64,000 bases of DNA from Naegleria gruberi (Eukaryota): the NCBI GenBank assembly GCA_000004985.1, contig GG738854.1, one strand, 5' to 3'. The stretch's first letter is position 1, and every line of letters starts with the position of its first letter. The translations under genes and the position numbers were made by a program. The notes beneath the pieces are model-generated. The model saw only the letters and a list, made by a program, of their open reading frames with translations. It was not told the DNA's origin and searched no databases. Shown in pieces: positions 33,488 through 63,269 of the stretch.

Positions 33488-34603
33488 TTATAAGGCATTC
33501 AAAATTTCTTCCAACCCCTTAACAACTCTCGAATAATCATCTTCATATCCAATTGCTAATCTGATGAAGGTGTGACCGTCATGCTCTTCAGGCCAGGGGT
33601 CAGTTCTTGATGTTTTACCTCCAAATGACGTTTTGTGTTCAATAATCTTGACACGAGTCAATACACCCAAAATTTGAGATTTACTTCCTTTAACCTTGAA
33701 AGTGAAAACACTTGGTACTAGAAATTCATCCAGCACCTTAGAGAAATACTTGGAAACTAGGGTATTTGTTGGATGTGTAGAAATCATAGGATGATTAATT
33801 TCCAATACTTTTGGGTGTTTGCTCAAGTATTCGGTAATTAACCTTTTAGTCAACTTGGAAGAGTTCTCAATCCTCTCATCGATACTGTACATTTGTTGAG
33901 TAATCAATTCACAATGGAATGGAGAGACATGATTTCCATTCACTATCATCCATTCTTCAATGTGTTTCAGTGCATTCTTTGACCTAGCCAAAACATAACC
34001 TCCAATACAAGTTCCAGCACTATAGTACTTTGTCATTGACGAGACAACATAATCGACTTGTTTCACACTAAATGGATTGAAAATAGTTTCAGTCAACCAA
34101 GTATTATCCACAATAGTTGTCAATGACTTTGAAAGTGATTCCAATTTCTGTAAAATTGAAAAATCAAATATTTTACCATTTGGATTAGAACACGATTCAA
34201 AGAACAAGACATTCACTTGTTTCAACAACTTTTTGTCTTGAAATTGTGAAATAATTTGCTGAGGTTTACCAACATCCACACTCACCAAGTTAATCTTAAA
34301 GCTTTTAGCCAACCAATTGAATAATCTTGGCGAATCACAATACAGTTCATTGGAATAGATTAAATTAATTGGTCCAAACTTATTTTGACTTATAATTCCA
34401 TGGAGAGTAGCACTAATGGATTGAATTCCAGAAGATACCAATTGACAAGCTTTTGCATGAGGTTCATGTCTCTTGATGAGTAATTCTTGGAGTTCAATAT
34501 TCTCTGGTGATGATGACCGATTGTAGAAGAATTTTCCTTCAGACCCTTCACCGAGAACTAGATGTTCATCTTGGAATCGTTCGTTGGTGTGTTGTTGCAT
34601 CAT
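33488..34603 (-). CDS. Cys/Met-metabolism PLP-dependent enzyme (cystathionine gamma-synthase / beta-lyase family)
   Basis: PLP-lysine motif VDYVVSSMTKYYSAGTCIGGYVL (equivalent to SATKYxxGHsDvvxG); N-terminal fold-type I pattern. Confidence 0.75.
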   Translation of the reverse strand: MMQQHTNERFQDEHLVLGEGSEGKFFYNRSSSPENIELQELLIKRHEPHAKACQLVSSGIQSISATLHGIISQNKFGPINLIYSNELYCDSPRLFNWLAKSFKINLVSVDVGKPQQIISQFQDKKLLKQVNVLFFESCSNPNGKIFDFSILQKLESLSKSLTTIVDNTWLTETIFNPFSVKQVDYVVSSMTKYYSAGTCIGGYVLARSKNALKHIEEWMIVNGNHVSPFHCELITQQMYSIDERIENSSKLTKRLITEYLSKHPKVLEINHPMISTHPTNTLVSKYFSKVLDEFLVPSVFTFKVKGSKSQILGVLTRVKIIEHKTSFGGKTSRTDPWPEEHDGHTFIRLAIGYEDDYSRVVKGLEEILNAL

Positions 34604-34748: not shown

Positions 34749-37700
34749 TCAATCTCTTTTATTGACAAGTTCAAAAGATGCAACATTAGAATACGATGTC
34801 AAATATTTGCAAATTGATTCACATGATTTGAAAGATTGCTGATTATCAAGAATGAAACTGAGACATGAAATGATTCTATCGCAAGAAACATCATGATTCT
34901 TAAATTCCTGCTCTGAGAATTGTTTCAATATTTGGAATGCATGACCAACATATCCAACAGCATCAGATTGTGAAAGATTTTCATGAGCTTTCCAATATTG
35001 AGTGGTGAAAAGATCAAATACCTTTGAGTATTCTTGGAATTTGTTATTCTTTTTGGAATTTTCCAAAGAGTACAACCATTCGTCATCTTGATCATCTAAC
35101 TTTTGAGCAATGACATCATATATTGTGAAAATTGAATCGTCTGAAGTTTCGGTTACTTTTTGAATCCTATCTAGAGGTCTATACACTAATTTCTGTGAGG
35201 AGGAAATTGAGCAATCGTCAGTAATGATTTTAACATTGAATTTAGAGGCCAATTGAGAGGTCTTTGCCTGTTCAGAAACTGAGCCAACCATACTGAAATA
35301 TCTTGCAGTTGAAGATCCAATATTTCCAACATAACCATCTCCAATAGAAACACCAACCCTGGCTGTGATTTTCTTTTGTAAACTTTCAATTACCTTTACA
35401 ATTTTCAAAGCTGCATCAAATGCCTTTTCTTGAAGTCTTACATCTACACTGTTACTATTCAGTGATAATTGAAATTCATCACATGAGAAGACGTTTAAAT
35501 TTCCTTGAGATAGTTTTACAATTGGACCAAGAAGGTTTACAATATCTCCAAAAATAGTTGTAATACTGTCAGGAGATTTTGATGACAGTCCATCAATTTT
35601 GACATGAATAACTGCACAACCCTTCTTGGATAAACCCATCTTGAATAAATTGGAGGCGTGCTGACCCTTTTTCATTGTGCTCTTACTTGAAAAGTGACTT
35701 CTGGAGGCGTTTGAGGCAGAAATTGAATTTCTTGATATTTCTGCATTCTTTTCCAATTCTTGTTGATTTTCAACATGTTCTAAGTGTTCATTTTGAATCT
35801 GTTCAAATACTGATTGAGGAATGAAAGTTTTAATTTCAGCAAGCCACTCAACTGTATTCTTCAAATTATTGAAAATTGAGTTCACTTCTCTAAACATGGA
35901 ACTGTTATTCGAAACACTACCCAAATCAAGAACTTTGATTCTTTCGAATTGCTTCTCCAAGAACTTCATAGGTCTCGAAACAACTAGTCCAGTAACAAAA
36001 CTTCCAACAATTCCAAGAACAATAATTCCAACAGTGACACCAATAGAAATTGAAGTTGTCAAAATCAAAGCTTCAGTCACCTCTGATTCGTACAAAACAA
36101 AGAAAATGTTCCACTGCATATTTTCCAAAACATACTTGTACGGAGTAATGATATAGCTAACACCATCAGATTCTCCCACAATTTTCATCACAGATGGCAA
36201 AATACTAAATGTTCTATTGTTCAACTCGTAGAATTGTTTCATTAGTGAACCAGCATTTCTCGACTTGACATCAAAGATGTTTGTGCTATTTAAACCATCT
36301 CCTGAAATGGTATCGATGGATCCACCAATGACAATGAAATTGTCCTGAGCTACCAGAACGTAACCTCTTCCCAGTAATTCAATCTTGGAGAGAAAGTTTA
36401 CAATCGTTTCTAGTGAAAGATTAACTTTGGCCAATCCAACCAATGATTTCGTCTTGTTTAGTTTGTAAATTTCTGGATCGTACATTAATTGAGAATAATA
36501 AATGGCAACTGTACTTCCCAAAACCTTGTATGGTTCTCCATACACTCCTTCCAACCCCTTTTCGTAATAGTTTTTCAATGTATAAATGAAGAAATCTTGT
36601 TTGGCAGGTACGTAAGGAGTCAAGTCAACTGTAGAATTGACTTTTACAATGTCTCCTGTGGTGATGTTCACAATATCTCTCAATGGTGCCTGGATATCCA
36701 AGAGGGTAATATGTATCCGTGTTATCCAGCCAACGCTGGATTGAAAGGATTTTGTCAGATGGGATCCACTGTAAGTGGATCCCATCAAGACAAAGCCAGG
36801 ATAAAATGGATAATGGATGGATATTTCCGATTTTATTGGATTCTGCAAAATACAATTTAGTACACAGAAGAGCTGCTATTATTTCAGTTGGCAAACTAAC
36901 ACAGAAAGACTCATATCTACAAGCAACAGATCCAATTCATCACGTGAATCAAGTCAACATATTGGAATTGGTAGAATTGGTAGAATCGGAAGTTAATCAC
37001 AAATTTATTCATCTAGTGATTGTATTAAGAGAGATCAAACAAAAATAACAATAAATGATATGATTATAATTCAAATTGGAAATAGTTGGAAAAAAAGCAA
37101 GATTTAATAGAAGAGTTTGAGTGAATGTGCAGTGTTATTTTCTTTGCAGAACTAATAAGAAATGCACAAGATGGTAAATTGCAAGATCTTAGCCATGAAT
37201 TCCATTGGCTATACGAAAGTTTTGAATCAGTTTAATGATGGTATTGATTGGTTACTCGCCCCCCTTTAATTTTATCCATTAAATCCAGATTTTTCCTTGA
37301 TTTATCTGATTTATCCAGATAAAAATCCACTGGCAGTCGACGGAATCCACTTACATCTGACAAAATCCTTTCAATCCAGCGTTGGCTGGATAACACGGAT
37401 ACATATTACCCTCATATCCAAAAGGTTGATAGGCAAAAACTGGAAATGGATTACTCGTGGTTCCACTAATAGTATAGGTGTATCTGGATGGGAGAGGAAC
37501 ACTGAAGAAGAATCCACAACCAGTAGTTCGAAATTCTACAAACTTTGGAAACAAGTAATTTCTAAACATGGGAATGGTCACAACACCTGTGGTATATTCT
37601 CTGGCCATGGTTTTGGTCAATTTGGCGATTGGTGTCATAACACCATCTAGATAGGTTATAATCTTTCTTCCAGATTCGTTTATGAGCTTGGTCGACAAAT

Positions 37701-37998
37701 CATTAATTGCCTTCTCTGTTACCAGATAAGAAGATAGCCAAACCAATAAACACCCACTTAGAATCATTACTGAAATAATTGAAACAATAAAGAGATTGAG
37801 TGGAATAATACCTGTGCAGCAAGTACGCGGCTGTGTCTTTGGATTGAGTGGTTCTTTGATGGCCACAACGGATGGAGTTGTCTGTTCCTCATACTCACTT
37901 CCTGATGGTGCAACTTTAGTCATTGAAACTGAAGGATGATGATGATGTTTTTTCTTATTGTTTTTCAATACAATTACGAAAGAGCTGCTAATTTGCAT
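34749..37998 (-). CDS. Receptor-type nucleotide cyclase-homology protein (N-cyto - TM - Cache-like extracellular domain - TM - class III cyclase-homology domain); reading frame interrupted by a 712-bp transposon at 36702-37413
   Basis: ORF 37998-37351 gives an N-terminal cytoplasmic segment, TM1 (IIPLNLFIVSIISVMILSGCLLVWLSSYL) and the start of a Cache-like sensor. ORF 36848-34749 continues the sensor, then TM2 (ILTTSISIGVTVGIIVLGIVGSFVTGLVV), then a cyclase-homology domain (..TTIFGDIVNLLGP.. and RVGVSIGDGYVGNIGSSTARYFSMVGSVSEQA). The ends of both ORFs are encoded by the transposon TIRs. Confidence 0.65.
36702..36790 (+). repeat. Left terminal inverted repeat of the MITE-like element (contains internal mini-palindrome GGATCCACTGTAAGTGGATCC)
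   Basis: Exact inverted match to 37413-37354; diverges after a 10-nt insertion. Confidence 0.8.
37330..37413 (-). repeat. Right terminal inverted repeat of the MITE-like element
   Basis: Reverse complement of 36702-36761 and beyond. Confidence 0.8.
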
Positions 37999-47046: not shown

Positions 47047-47166
47047 ACAAAAAAGACTACAACACCACAGGTTCCCAAGTTGTCTCCAACCTCAGTACTG
47101 ATGTGGCTCGACGATGCTTAACTTCTCAAATCGGACGGGATGAGGTGCATTCATCGTGATATGGCC
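47047..47166 (-). rRNA. 5S ribosomal RNA gene, copy 1 (120 nt)
   Basis: Reverse complement reads AUGGCUACGGCCAUAUCACGAUGAAUGCACCUCAUCCCGUCCGAUUUGAGAAGUUAAGCAUCGUCGAGCCACAUCAGUACUGAGGUUGGAGACAACUUGGGAACCUGUGGUGUUGUAGUC. This is the canonical 5S helix I-V layout with box A (AAGUUAAGCA). It is followed by a T5-6 Pol III terminator. TATA-like TTTATATATTA lies ~25 nt upstream. Confidence 0.9.
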
Positions 47167-47442
47167 GTAGCCATCAATAATCTAAATTTCTAATATATAA
47201 ATCTAGTATAGGGTGAGTAAAAGTTGTTCACAAAAATTCAATTATTATTAAGGATTATTAAGACGAAAAGCCTGCCAGGAATATGGCGACGATCCCGCTG
47301 CAGTCTTTGACTGTATGAACATTGTTCAATGTGAATTCAAGAGTTCTTGGTTGATCAGCCCTATATTTATTCACAATTAGACCTGTTGAATCGCTTGACT
47401 GTTTTTCTCCAGAAAGCTGAATTCAGCATTTACAACAAATAA

Positions 47443-48728: not shown

Positions 48729-48733
48729 AAAAA
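48729..48733 (-). terminator. Pol III oligo-T terminator of 5S copy 2
   Basis: AAAAA on the plus strand immediately 3' of the gene. Confidence 0.6.
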
Positions 48734-48853
48734 GACTACAGCACCACAGGTTCCCAAGTTGTCTCCAACCTCAGTACTGATGTGGCTCGACGATGCTTAA
48801 CTTCTCAAATCGGACGGGATGAGGTGCATTCATCGTGATATGGCCGTAGCCAT
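48734..48853 (-). rRNA. 5S ribosomal RNA gene, copy 2 (120 nt; one substitution relative to copy 1, A/G at 47054 vs 48741)
   Basis: Same 120-nt sequence as copy 1 except one base; followed by a T5 run; GATATAAT upstream. Confidence 0.9.
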
Positions 48854-49067
48854 TCATTATATCAACTTGTGAAATATGAATCAGTTCACTCCTTTTTCTT
48901 TACCTTTCTGAACTGCTATGAAATTGAGTGTATATAGCTCCATTAGAAAGTTACAAATGACTTGTTTTTGGATGTTGATTAGTATATTGAATAAATTTTA
49001 CTCATGTTCACTATTCAATAAATAATTTATTGACAATAATTGAGAGAATCTATGATATTTTGCTAAC

Positions 49068-62120: not shown

Positions 62121-63269
62121 CTACATGCCCTTGATAGTTTTCATAAATATTCTATGAGTTGGAATTAATTCTGAACAAACACATAATTCCATCTCTCTGA
62201 AAAGACTAACATTGAAAACACCTCCTCCCTCTGCATCTTGAATTTCCTTTCCAATAATAGAAACCATAGCTTTGTTGATATACCTGAATGATTGTTTTCT
62301 TTCCACTAAAAACTTTTGATAGATATGATTAGCTTGAGTTTTCATGTCAGCCTCATCTTTCATCTTATTGAAATTCATAATTTCAGCCAATAAGAAGTAG
62401 GAATCTGTTTTTTTCTCTGTAGTACATGCTTGTTTGAAAAATTTGGACATGGTTGAATCATTCATTGTATCCATTAACTGAATAACTCTTGAATTTTGTA
62501 AAGTTTCAGTTAGAGTTGATTCTCTTCTAATATTCAAAATGGTCATCACGATAACAATTGGAATTACAACAGCCAACGAAACACAAACAACTATCAAAGT
62601 ACCTGTTGATGAATTATAGACCAAATCATCTTGATCTCTGGAATCTGTCTTGACAGAATTAAACACAGTTGACTGTTGTTTGTACCATGTAGTAGTTGCG
62701 TTCTGATAAGTTCCTCCCTGATACAATTCAAAAGCTCTATCATAATTGTTCTGTTTCAGTAATATAATAATTTCTTCCATCAATGGTAATGTATACATGT
62801 CAACACCATTCTTACTTCCATTATTGAAATTTGAGAGTTTAACAACTGGATCAACATATTCAAAGAATCTATCGAGTGCATCAATCATCTGTTCTTTATA
62901 GACATACCACTTGTCAACCTCAGAGTTGTTACGAGATAGAGCTCCAACTCTAACAATATCGAGCATTAATTCATTGGTATTGAGAGCATCACCTCTTGCT
63001 ATCAATACTTTCGAGAATGAATTTTGAGTTATATTAAACATGTCAATGGTTACTCCCGCAACAATAATAAAGGCAGCAATATTAATAAATAAACTGATTA
63101 GTGACAGTAATCGCATACAATCAAGTTCTAGCACTCCACAACATAGTTTAATTTTAAAACTTAGAGAAGAAATGGTTCCTTTGCTGATCTTTGATGTTCT
63201 AGATGTTTGGGTGAAGGCAGTTGACTTGGTTTTGTTCTGAATAATTTGAGAGTTGGTTGATTTGTCCAT
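62121..63269 (-). CDS. Two-pass membrane protein with ~190-aa extracellular domain between TM helices and ~110-aa cytoplasmic tail
   Basis: TM1 LLSLISLFINIAAFIIVAGV and TM2 LIVVCVSLAVVIPIVIVMTIL, with an N-glycosylation-sequon-rich segment between them. Same topology as the N-terminal half of the receptor cyclase at 34.7-38.0 kb. No catalytic domain. Confidence 0.45.
   Translation of the reverse strand: MDKSTNSQIIQNKTKSTAFTQTSRTSKISKGTISSLSFKIKLCCGVLELDCMRLLSLISLFINIAAFIIVAGVTIDMFNITQNSFSKVLIARGDALNTNELMLDIVRVGALSRNNSEVDKWYVYKEQMIDALDRFFEYVDPVVKLSNFNNGSKNGVDMYTLPLMEEIIILLKQNNYDRAFELYQGGTYQNATTTWYKQQSTVFNSVKTDSRDQDDLVYNSSTGTLIVVCVSLAVVIPIVIVMTILNIRRESTLTETLQNSRVIQLMDTMNDSTMSKFFKQACTTEKKTDSYFLLAEIMNFNKMKDEADMKTQANHIYQKFLVERKQSFRYINKAMVSIIGKEIQDAEGGGVFNVSLFREMELCVCSELIPTHRIFMKTIKGM

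Follow-up and report, generated by a model that had tools for sequence, protein, structure and literature searches.

The stretch of Naegleria gruberi DNA analyzed here (the window, 64,000 nucleotides) contains, at positions 34749-37998 on the minus strand, a single receptor-type gene that fills this region. Taken as a whole, the gene is probably best explained as encoding a sensor pseudo-cyclase with a Cache-transmembrane-cyclase-homology architecture, derived from dCache-HAMP cyclases and split by a transposon in the haplotype present in the window. The following features were identified, given in the order of the gene, with the methods in brackets (TM, transmembrane segment; CHD, cyclase-homology domain).

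37422-37923, minus strand: first part of the coding sequence, with the likely start ATG, the cytoplasmic N-tail, TM1, and the N-terminal ~100 aa of the ectodomain (ORF list, paralogue starts, translation)
37720-37809, minus strand: TM1 (hydropathy scan)
37414-37421, minus strand: upstream copy of an 8-bp target-site duplication, TTGGATAT on the gene strand (read from the sequence)
36702-37413, no strand assigned: MITE-like non-autonomous DNA transposon of 712 bp, within the ectodomain-coding region (repeat search)
36769-37354, minus strand: putative intron of 586 nt, wholly inside the transposon, GTAAGT...TTACAG (read from the sequence)
36694-36701, minus strand: downstream copy of the 8-bp target-site duplication, TTGGATAT (read from the sequence)
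36681, minus strand: extra G, 12 nt downstream of the target duplication (comparison with P0007)
36072-36693, minus strand: rest of the double-Cache (dCache_1-type) ectodomain (profile against PDB, Pfam matches of homologues)
35979-36071, minus strand: TM2, ALILTTSISIGVTVGIIVLGIVGSFVTGLVV (hydropathy scan, translation)
35808-35978, minus strand: HAMP-like segment, SRPMKFLEKQ...EIKTFIPQSV, with family-invariant Pro, Glu, and C-terminal Pro
35631-35807, minus strand: low-complexity Ser/Asn/Glu-rich linker, ending in a conserved LFKMGL motif (alignments, translation)
35103-35630, minus strand: degenerate class III CHD (PDB profile, Foldseek, hhalign, MAFFT)
35598-35600, minus strand: Asp1 position, occupied by Lys605 (HMMER to sAC C2, MAFFT, hhalign)
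35490-35492, minus strand: substrate Lys position, occupied by Val641 (MAFFT, hhalign)
35478-35480, minus strand: Asp2 position, retained as Asp645 in "SCDEF" (MAFFT, hhalign)
35271-35273, minus strand: Asn position, occupied by Glu714 (MAFFT, hhalign)
35259-35261, minus strand: Arg position, occupied by Thr718 or a gap (MAFFT, hhalign)
34749-35102, minus strand: D-E-W-x-Y-E-L-E motif, helical (TPR-like) tail, and stop codon (family column statistics, AF2)

The ORF list gave two open reading frames for the receptor, 37998-37351 and 36848-34749, which lie in different frames with the 712-bp insertion between them, and the region is thus not one uninterrupted coding stretch. A spliced model, computed to be in frame, comprises 887 aa, and receptor residue numbers (e.g., Lys605, D645) refer to this model. 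The N. gruberi protein P0001 was 100% identical to the window protein. We take the ATG at 37923 as the likely start codon because every paralogue begins at the equivalent of M26, and it is therefore preferred to the ATG at 37998 with which the earlier annotation had opened the gene; that in-frame upstream ATG probably falls within the 5'UTR. Pfam matches to NucS_C, EPL1, and Latarcin (E 0.01-0.4) were sub-threshold and at odds with the architecture and were set aside as chance, as was an Rfam BtsR1 match at 35503-35567, which reached 29 bits where the gathering score is 66. The gene at 62121-63269, previously described as a neighbor of the same topology, does have a TM-ectodomain-TM layout, but it lies 24 kb away, its ectodomain is not homologous to that of the receptor, and it carries a C-terminal RGS domain.

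Exactly two hydrophobic segments were identified by hydropathy scan, at residues 64-93 and 448-478 of the 887-aa model, separated by a loop of ~309 aa (354 aa counting the transposon-derived insert). The cytoplasmic sides carry basic residues, and of the 11 N-x-S/T sequons 7 fall between the two segments. A 5-sequence ectodomain alignment gave nothing significant against PDB; matches came after deepening to 21 sequences, when profile A6, headed by the P0007 ectodomain, identified the chemoreceptor dCache 6mni (E 1.1e-6), followed by 6iop (E 1.3e-3), 7w0w, and 3lib. No Pfam dCache_1 (PF02743) match was found for the window protein itself in the Pfam search, and the ectodomains of the homologues P0045, P0051, and P0074 matched dCache_1 at E values of 4.9e-10, 5.9e-7, and 1.9e-6, all under the 45-bit gathering score. 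The AF2 ectodomain model (P0007 and 4 paralogues) had a pLDDT of 41 and was unusable, with a secondary-structure order compatible with the two stacked PAS-like modules on a long N-terminal helix that mark a dCache fold, so that the dCache assignment is based on sequence profiles. On these profiles, we consider the assignment of a dCache_1-type extracellular ectodomain between the two TMs confirmed. Amino-acid-sensing dCache domains form a subclass that additionally requires Y, R, W, Y, and D residues. The R-x-W-Y signature of the distal dCache module was lost in the window protein (Y-V-P-A-K-Q-D-F-F) and its subfamily (KQDFF) and retained in the more distant relatives P0074, P0045, P0051, and P0055, as read from sequences and alignment.

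HAMP domains span about 50 aa, with a conserved Pro and two amphipathic helices joined by a connector. The segment directly after TM2 fits a HAMP by its location and its invariant Pro. Profile A7 gave a full-length, in-register alignment to six structure entries for the Af1503 HAMP, yet at E 0.3-1.4 only, and Pfam HAMP gave no match for the receptor. Beyond the linker and the CHD, the D-E-W-x-Y-E-L-E motif was strongly conserved in 102 relatives (W 98%, E 90%, Y 89%). The tail that follows it was helical in the AF2 model, at low confidence, and weak Pfam TPR matches were found in the tails of a few relatives.

The C-terminal domain was confirmed as a class III cyclase-homology fold, of the beta-alpha-beta-beta-alpha-beta palm type, as originally predicted. 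The family CHD profile searched against PDB identified sAC (ADCY10) C2 as the best match (E 5e-9), with RhGC and CyaB at ~5e-6, Foldseek on the AF2 model of the CHD returned Cya2, CyaB, and tmAC (probability 1.0, E 1e-8), and hhalign against the canonical relative P0074 gave a probability of 97% (E 2.8e-11). The AF2 model itself had a pLDDT of 57, with ~75 across the first 100 residues and a poor C-terminal part of the CHD. Pfam Guanylate_cyc (PF00211) reached 15.7 bits on the window protein (E 0.011), below the threshold of 21.9, a partial match covering profile positions 77-148. Matches at E<0.01 were found in 21 of 48 relatives, and among the 11 relatives listed only P0074 exceeded the threshold (87.6 bits). 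The family is mostly below, and invisible to, Pfam thresholds. Together with the hydropathy scan, the placement of the sequons, and the dCache profile matches, the fold bears out the predicted order of TM, Cache-like ectodomain, TM, and cytoplasmic CHD.

The catalytic register was obtained from MAFFT L-INS-i and hhalign to P0074, which concur, and the HMMER alignment to sAC C2 concurs on Asp1. P0074 is fully canonical, with FTDIVQFT, KYIGD, RIGIH, and GDPVNASSR motifs, a Guanylate_cyc match at E 1e-24, and dCache_1. In the window protein, Asp2 (D645) and the beta4 Arg (R685) are still present, and Asp1, the substrate Lys, the Asn, and the Arg are lost. Both metal-binding Asp had been reported as present; one of them is, in a motif other than the one proposed. 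The Asp of "VKIDGLS", proposed as the first, is two residues out of register with the position where Lys605 aligns, and "IFGDIV" is located in helix alpha1 and is not catalytic, the earlier statement having gone wrong because the hand alignment was mis-registered. The reported loss of the Asn/Arg pair stands with a corrected register (off by two), the Asn position being E714 rather than S713 and the Arg position T718 or a gap rather than K717. In class III active sites, the two Asp come from one subunit and Lys, Asn, and Arg from the other. The canonical motifs are F-x-D-I-x-G-F-T in beta1 and G-D between beta2 and beta3 for the two metal Asp, and V-N-x-A-x-R for the transition-state Asn and Arg; the substrate-specifying residue, Lys in adenylate and Glu in guanylate cyclases, precedes Asp2 by four positions. 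With Asp1, Lys, Asn, and Arg all lost, the CHD would complete neither half-site, alone or with a partner, and these substitutions mark it as a predicted pseudo-enzyme.

The homologue search identified 822 representative relatives at E<1e-10. We examined the best 150 relatives, a set biased toward the query's own branch, and 102 relatives were aligned; a second search with alignment A1 as query added only P0007. Named members belong to N. lovaniensis, Willaertia magna, and Pharyngomonas kirbyi. Among the 102 representatives, neither Asp1 nor the Arg was retained in any sequence (Leu occupied the Arg position in 72%), Asp2 was an Asp in 38%, and Asn was found in 11. Positions elsewhere were strongly conserved in the same relatives, including G112 (100%), N113 (88%), G115 (98%), R/K120 (99%), and W195 (98%). 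By alignment, the catalytic losses extend across at least about 100 sequence clusters. Since the fold, the G-N-x-G/R/G core, and the new post-CHD motif are all strongly conserved, the family appears to be selected for a non-catalytic role. Our literature search found nothing specific describing a heterolobosean pseudo-cyclase family.

We analyzed the interruption of the gene, as read from the assembly sequence of the reference strain, against a second N. gruberi copy, P0007, which lies on another scaffold, lacks the element, and has an uninterrupted QPYGYPGTIRDIVNITT (compared at the protein level only). Over 412 aa, P0007 differs from the window protein by one substitution, two junction residues, and a 45-aa insertion; the 45 aa correspond to the element and are missing from the paralogues as well as from P0007. 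The terminal inverted repeats, 60 nt each (36702-36761 and 37354-37413), were 100% complementary in the repeat search, with degenerate, GGAT-rich subterminal repeats located inward of them. Both repeats and the target-site duplication are perfect, and the element has no coding capacity and no transposase. The extra G at 36681 shifts the frame relative to P0007, which has PGTIRDIVNITT. An intact 817-aa ORF was regained by deleting the transposon, one copy of the target-site duplication, and the G at 36681; precise loss of the transposon alone was rejected as the ancestral state because the frameshift remains unless this G goes too. The gene in the window haplotype is thus broken up by a 712-bp MITE-like element that inserted very recently and, in addition, by a 1-nt insertion. 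P0007 is probably the other allele of the receptor gene and, being free of the insertion, probably the functional copy. The insertion distinguishes two near-identical copies within the reference strain, which are probably its two haplotypes. In the public gene model, P0001, the N terminus is truncated and the start lies inside the element because of the transposon insertion. The original prediction made no mention of the element. No further copy was found in the 64-kb window by repeat and sequence search, metagenome contigs had no exact match to a 24-nt sequence of the terminal inverted repeat, a protein homologue search with a 50-aa transposon-derived peptide returned no candidates, and the literature yielded nothing specific on MITEs of Naegleria.

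The transposon-bearing copy might still be expressed if the element behaved like an intron, with GTAAGT...TTACAG excising 586 nt and the extra G restoring the frame, and the receptor would then carry a 45-aa insert in its membrane-distal Cache module. The canonical GTAAGT and YAG sites are placed symmetrically within both arms, and GTAAGTGGAT is present in both arms, reading inward. Removal of the putative intron was computed to join both ORFs in frame with the addition of 45 transposon-derived residues, an outcome that would fail without the 1-nt insertion at 36681; an alternative splice from GTAATA at 37409 to CCAG at 36690, worked by hand, did not restore the frame. However, an in-frame result would be expected by chance one time in three, the public gene model P0001 begins inside the element instead, and the spliced mRNA would retain both 60-nt arms, forming a 59-bp perfect hairpin of -112.8 kcal/mol within the coding sequence, which would probably block translation or trigger RNAi. 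We therefore consider expression of this copy unlikely.

The gene could also encode a working cyclase, with a non-canonical catalytic constellation or as a heterodimer subunit whose missing residues are supplied in trans, the latter having been raised in the original prediction. The fold is kept, D645 and R685 are retained, the best PDB match is the C2 half-domain of sAC, and class III heterodimers in which one of the sites has degenerated are well established (tmAC C1/C2, sGC alpha/beta, sAC C1-C2). Some class III cyclases with substituted Asn/Arg, e.g., Rv0386, keep weak activity, with both metal Asp retained there. However, K605 rules out a C1-like role and V641, E714, and T718 or a gap rule out a C2-like role, so that the CHD fits neither place in a heterodimer; none of these catalytic positions is conserved family-wide, which is unexpected for catalytic residues, and a six-frame CHD and ectodomain HMM scan of the 64-kb window identified no second CHD or ectodomain paralogue, only the gene itself. 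A working cyclase is thus very unlikely. Retention of a nucleotide-binding role would be another outcome, with the pseudo-CHD acting as an NTP- or cNMP-binding receptor module that couples nucleotide state to the ectodomain (inside-out) or gates the tail. The degenerate GGDEF domains of LapD, PelD, and PopA, of a related palm-type fold, bind c-di-GMP, and the layout of sensor, HAMP-like segment, and degenerate cyclase-fold domain parallels LapD. The G-N-x-G, R-K120, and G126 core, pocket-lining in canonical CHDs, is strongly conserved, but the purine-recognizing Lys is gone, as are the Asn and Arg that contact phosphate and ribose, which makes nucleotide binding decidedly improbable. The sensor pseudo-cyclase reading, put forward in the original prediction as one of two options, is the one favored by the catalytic losses in the window protein and across the heterolobosean family.

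A sensor pseudo-cyclase of this kind would be a plasma-membrane receptor consisting, from N to C terminus, of a cytoplasmic tail, TM1, dCache, TM2, a HAMP-like transducer, the CHD, and the DEWxYELE motif with its helical tail. What follows on its output mechanism we infer throughout. Ligand binding at the dCache module would be relayed via TM2 and the HAMP-like segment and would alter the geometry of a pseudo-CHD dimer, and the output would come from the pseudo-CHD and the DEW-motif/helical tail interacting with other proteins. This interaction could either recruit an effector or pair the pseudo-CHD with competent cyclase paralogues, silencing them.

A bolder proposal, which we hold to be doubtful, is that in Heterolobosea a bacterial-type dCache-HAMP adenylate cyclase gave rise to a large family of pseudo-cyclases, ligand-gated and with non-catalytic output, with the element perhaps being intron-generating and the 1-nt change compensating. 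If true, these receptors would signal without cyclic nucleotide, through effector recruitment by the DEWxYELE/helical tail or by poisoning active cyclase paralogues through heterodimerization, because a CHD dead in both half-sites would kill both active sites of a mixed dimer. As a receptor class, they would then act by inhibiting or scaffolding instead of by catalysis, and the element would be a transposon of the intron-generating kind, observed shortly after it had inserted.

The element resembles MITEs and other non-autonomous class II transposons with 8-bp target-site duplications (hAT-, P-, and Mutator-like) in its terminal inverted repeats, 8-bp duplication, and lack of coding capacity, and also in having an empty site, here in the near-identical second gene copy. 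Its likeness to intron-generating "introner" transposons lies in the splice-site-like motifs inside the element ends, splicing being putative here. For the receptor, LapD offers an analogy in using a sensor domain, a HAMP, and a dead nucleotide-cyclase-fold domain for signaling, but it is bacterial, belongs to the GGDEF family rather than the class III CHDs, and has a known ligand, c-di-GMP. The tmAC C1/C2, sGC alpha/beta, and ADCY10 C1-C2 pairs likewise have the class III fold with catalytic residues missing in one domain; in these systems each domain holds a complementary half-site and the pair is active, whereas the window CHD has lost both halves. Class III cyclases would thereby join the enzyme folds reused as pseudo-enzyme signaling modules in eukaryotic receptors.

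Free-living amoebae, including Naegleria, have very large receptor-cyclase repertoires, and these counts have been argued to show heavy reliance on cAMP and cGMP. A single Naegleria Cache-adenylate cyclase was noted by Upadhyay et al. 2016 (PMC4822843), and 67 kinase-cyclase-kinase receptors in Acanthamoeba (PMC4053784) and 64 cyclases in Physarum (PMC4758236) were reported. The Acanthamoeba and Physarum expansions are likewise large, lineage-specific, and transmembrane, and combine a sensor outside the cell with a CHD inside it, but they have a single TM and kinase domains on either side, and their members are counted among the cyclases, whereas the heterolobosean family is degenerate and mostly sub-Pfam-threshold. 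A sizeable conserved heterolobosean branch unable to make cyclic nucleotide canonically would mean that amoeba cyclase repertoires need rereading.

The closest likeness is to the bacterial-type dCache-HAMP class III adenylate cyclases, represented by M. tuberculosis Rv2435c, the one Naegleria Cache-adenylate cyclase of Upadhyay et al. 2016, and the metagenomic P0074, with which the window protein shares the domain order TM-dCache_1-TM-HAMP-like-CHD. P0074 combines the same ectodomain type, homologous at 108 bits to the A4 profile, with a homologous CHD, and the "VGN(I/V)GSS" strand is common to both proteins. These homologies indicate that the window protein descends from such cyclases. P0074 holds every catalytic residue, whereas the window protein holds only Asp2 and the beta4 Arg, and DEWxYELE follows the CHD in the window family and is absent from P0074. 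A canonical P0074-type protein and a DEW-motif pseudo-cyclase thus form a tractable pair for comparison.

The window is AT-rich (~33% GC), with tightly packed ORFs, and the receptor interval 34749-37998 consists of 2 minus-strand ORFs in different frames, 37998..37351 and 36848..34749. A protein search placed the window in the nuclear genome of N. gruberi, the lower ORF being 100% identical to P0001, a public 678-aa "predicted protein." A transposon (TE) was identified between the 2 ORFs:

36702-37413: TE of 712 bp, between the 2 ORFs, with perfect 60-nt inverted repeats at its ends
36694-36701 and 37414-37421: 8-bp target-site duplications (TSDs), TTGGATAT on the gene strand, identical on both sides

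The TE ends form the sole strong inverted repeat of the entire window, and both arms carry GTAAGTGGAT, reading inward. The perfect inverted ends and the flanking duplication therefore identify a non-autonomous, MITE-like DNA transposon inside coding sequence. No further TE copies were found in the 64-kb window, in metagenome contigs by exact search with the terminal inverted repeat, or by protein search with the TE-derived peptide. Paralogues lack ~45 residues exactly at the TE site, and P0007, a near-identical N. gruberi copy on another scaffold, is uninterrupted across it at the protein level (...QPYGYPGTIRDIVNITT...). Over 412 residues, P0007 departs from the window gene only by 1 Phe/Tyr difference, at 2 residues of the junction, and in lacking the 45 inserted residues. 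The insertion is a recent one. The simplest reading of P0007 is as the other allele of the window gene, with a very recent duplicate as the possible alternative.

Removal of the TE and 1 target-site copy leaves the frame broken, and relative to the TE-free P0007, an extra G is present at 36681, 12 nt downstream of the insertion site. With the TE, 1 TSD, and G36681 all removed, the ATG at 37923 opens an uninterrupted reading frame of 817 aa in a single exon. The TE also carries GTAAGT at 37354 and TTACAG ending at 36769; removal of the 586 nt between them is predicted to join the ORFs in frame with 45 added TE-derived residues, giving the 887-aa model1, to which residue numbers refer. G36681, which puts precise TE excision out of frame and the putative TE-internal splice in frame, may be a footprint of the insertion, may be compensatory, or may be coincidental. 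The predicted spliced mRNA keeps both 60-nt arms as a perfect 59-bp hairpin (-112.8 kcal/mol, z = -23). On these grounds, the TE-bearing haplotype of the receptor gene is probably crippled. P0001, the public model, has its start within the TE and is probably a gene-calling artefact. At the upper end, the first ATG of the ORF (37998) gives 25 extra residues, MQISSSFVIVLKNNKKKHHHHPSVS (window 37921-37998), present in no paralogue; the Met encoded at 37923 is where every paralogue begins, and by this comparison it is the likelier start codon. Other features of the window were as follows:

33488-34603, minus strand: PLP-dependent enzyme of Cys/Met metabolism (Pfam E 1.9e-44), only 145 bp downstream of the receptor stop codon, a gap that illustrates the compact genome
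38184-40781, plus strand: 3 adjoining ORFs with ~50 nt between them, divergent from the receptor gene, the last with a weak protein-kinase match (Pkinase E 4.4e-5) and an HSDISIRN motif; they may be a single gene with short introns
47050-47203 and 48729-48882: a 154-nt segment present twice, 1.7 kb apart, at 93% identity
49072-49527: 2 tandem repeats of a 228-nt unit, 75% identity
61055-62113, plus strand: F-box protein (F-box-like E 4e-6) that also bears a concanavalin/LamG-like domain (Laminin_G_3 E 1.8e-13)
62121-63269, minus strand: receptor-like RGS protein, with N-tail, TM, ~140-aa ectodomain, TM, and C-terminal RGS domain (Pfam E 4.5e-7)

Only 2 TM-grade hydrophobic segments were identified in model1 (residues 64-93 and 448-478), with basic residues beside the cytoplasmic sides of both and 7 of 11 N-x-S/T sequons between them, bearing out the N-in, ectodomain, C-in topology of the original prediction. 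The gene at 62121-63269 had been likened to it as a neighbor; it shares the TM-ectodomain-TM topology, but it lies 24 kb away, and its ectodomain is not homologous to that of the receptor.

The receptor ectodomain had been described as Cache-like. No Pfam matches were obtained in this region for the window protein or P0007, and its AlphaFold model, a check proposed at the outset, had a pLDDT of 41, too low for use. An HMM of close paralogues recognized 40 relatives over the whole length of their ectodomains, and several of these matched Pfam dCache_1 (P0045, E 4.9e-10; P0074, 5.9e-7; P0051, 1.9e-6). Further, an ectodomain profile of 21 sequences headed by P0007 matched solved dCache ligand-binding domains of chemoreceptors (6mni, E 1.1e-6; 6iop, 1.3e-3), with 7w0w and 3lib, a dCache histidine kinase, next in rank. 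These homology matches support the Cache assignment and point specifically to a double Cache. In more distant members the distal module keeps its R-x-W-Y signature, with K-Q-D-F-F instead in the window's subfamily. Following TM2, a stretch of 57 residues (SRPMKFLEKQ...) has a Pro that is invariant in the family and aligns full-length and in register to 6 Af1503 HAMP structure entries, at E values of only 0.3-1.4; we term this segment HAMP-like, as an unproven assignment.

Accessory domains were observed in some relatives. The public model of P0005 (N. gruberi NAEGRDRAFT_59796, outside the window) has RCC1 repeats fused N-terminal to the Cache/pseudo-cyclase body, which may reflect a genuine fusion or two genes merged in the model. 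The JGI environmental relatives P0051 and P0082 have a long N-terminal ankyrin-repeat region before TM1, dCache, and a degenerate cyclase-homology domain (CHD), marking the cytoplasmic N-tail as a site of domain accretion in the family.

The window CHD scored 15.7 bits against Pfam Guanylate_cyc, below the 21.9 threshold. A CHD family profile of 5 sequences matched the C2 domain of soluble adenylyl cyclase (sAC) ADCY10 (E 5e-9) and rhodopsin-guanylyl cyclase and CyaB (both E ~5e-6), and hhalign against the CHD of P0074 gave 97% probability (E 2.8e-11). The AF2 model of the CHD (pLDDT ~75 in the first 100 residues, 57 overall), searched with Foldseek, matched Cya2, CyaB, CyaC, and mammalian AC with probability 1.0. 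Together, these matches uphold the cyclase-homology fold of the C-terminal domain.

P0074, a metagenomic relative with the same dCache-TM-HAMP-like architecture, has a textbook CHD (Pfam E 1e-24; motifs FTDIVQFT, KYIGD, RIGIH, and GDPVNASSR) and provides a reliable catalytic register. MAFFT L-INS-i and hhalign concurred on all assignments, and the HMMER alignment to sAC C2 concurred on Asp1:

Metal Asp1: Lys605, lost; the Asp of VKIDGLS falls 2 positions late
Substrate Lys: Val641, lost
Metal Asp2: Asp645 (SCDEF), retained
Catalytic Asn: Glu714, lost
Catalytic Arg: Thr718 or a gap, lost

Both metal Asp had been read as present, in VKIDGLS and IFGDIV; only Asp2 is kept, and IFGDIV occupies the position of helix alpha1, irrelevant to catalysis. 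The predicted replacement of the Asn/Arg pair held, in a register that was off by 2. Because essential residues of both half-sites are absent, the window CHD fits neither subunit role, donor of the Asp pair or donor of Lys/Asn/Arg, and so the proposal of a cyclase completed in trans by a partner fails. No second CHD is encoded in the 64-kb window.

An exhaustive profile search returned 4546 representatives with E<=1e-3, of which 822 reached <=1e-10 and 92 reached <=1e-30. Named members among the proteins looked up were all Heterolobosea, namely N. gruberi (including P0009, whose scaffold, like that of P0001, is 665,159 bp), N. lovaniensis, Willaertia magna, and Pharyngomonas kirbyi; the rest were environmental sequences. 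Among 102 representatives with full CHD coverage, none had Asp at the Asp1 position or Arg at the Arg position (Leu in 72%), and 11 had Asn at the Asn position. Strong conservation was found at G112-N113-x-G115, R/K120, G126, F158, and R161-P162, and in D-E-W-x-Y-E-L-E just past the CHD (W 98%), a motif that P0074 does not have. That catalytic residues are lost while other positions stay strongly conserved, in genera that diverged deeply, indicates a pseudo-cyclase family under selection for a non-catalytic function rather than decay.

Beside the documented architecture, fold, catalytic-residue loss, family-wide pattern, and TE insertion, we propose a mechanism in which the dCache module would bind an extracellular ligand, TM2 and the HAMP-like segment would pass the change to a pseudo-CHD dimer, and the output would be protein-protein interaction via the pseudo-CHD and the DEW/helical tail. 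If the pseudo-CHD paired with a canonical CHD, neither active site of the mixed dimer would be complete, which makes ligand-controlled inhibition of active cyclase paralogues a concrete, testable possibility. Nucleotide binding without turnover, by analogy with LapD, is a weaker alternative to such inhibition.

A literature search returned no account of a receptor family of doubly degenerate pseudo-cyclases with the DEW motif, and N. lovaniensis homologues carry the automatic UniProt label "Guanylate cyclase domain-containing." A single Cache-containing "bacterial-type adenylate cyclase" has been noted in Naegleria (Upadhyay et al. 2016, PMC4822843), and Acanthamoeba and Physarum provide documented cases of amoebal receptor-cyclase expansion (PMC4053784, PMC4758236). 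Cache-HAMP cyclases are already known in bacteria.
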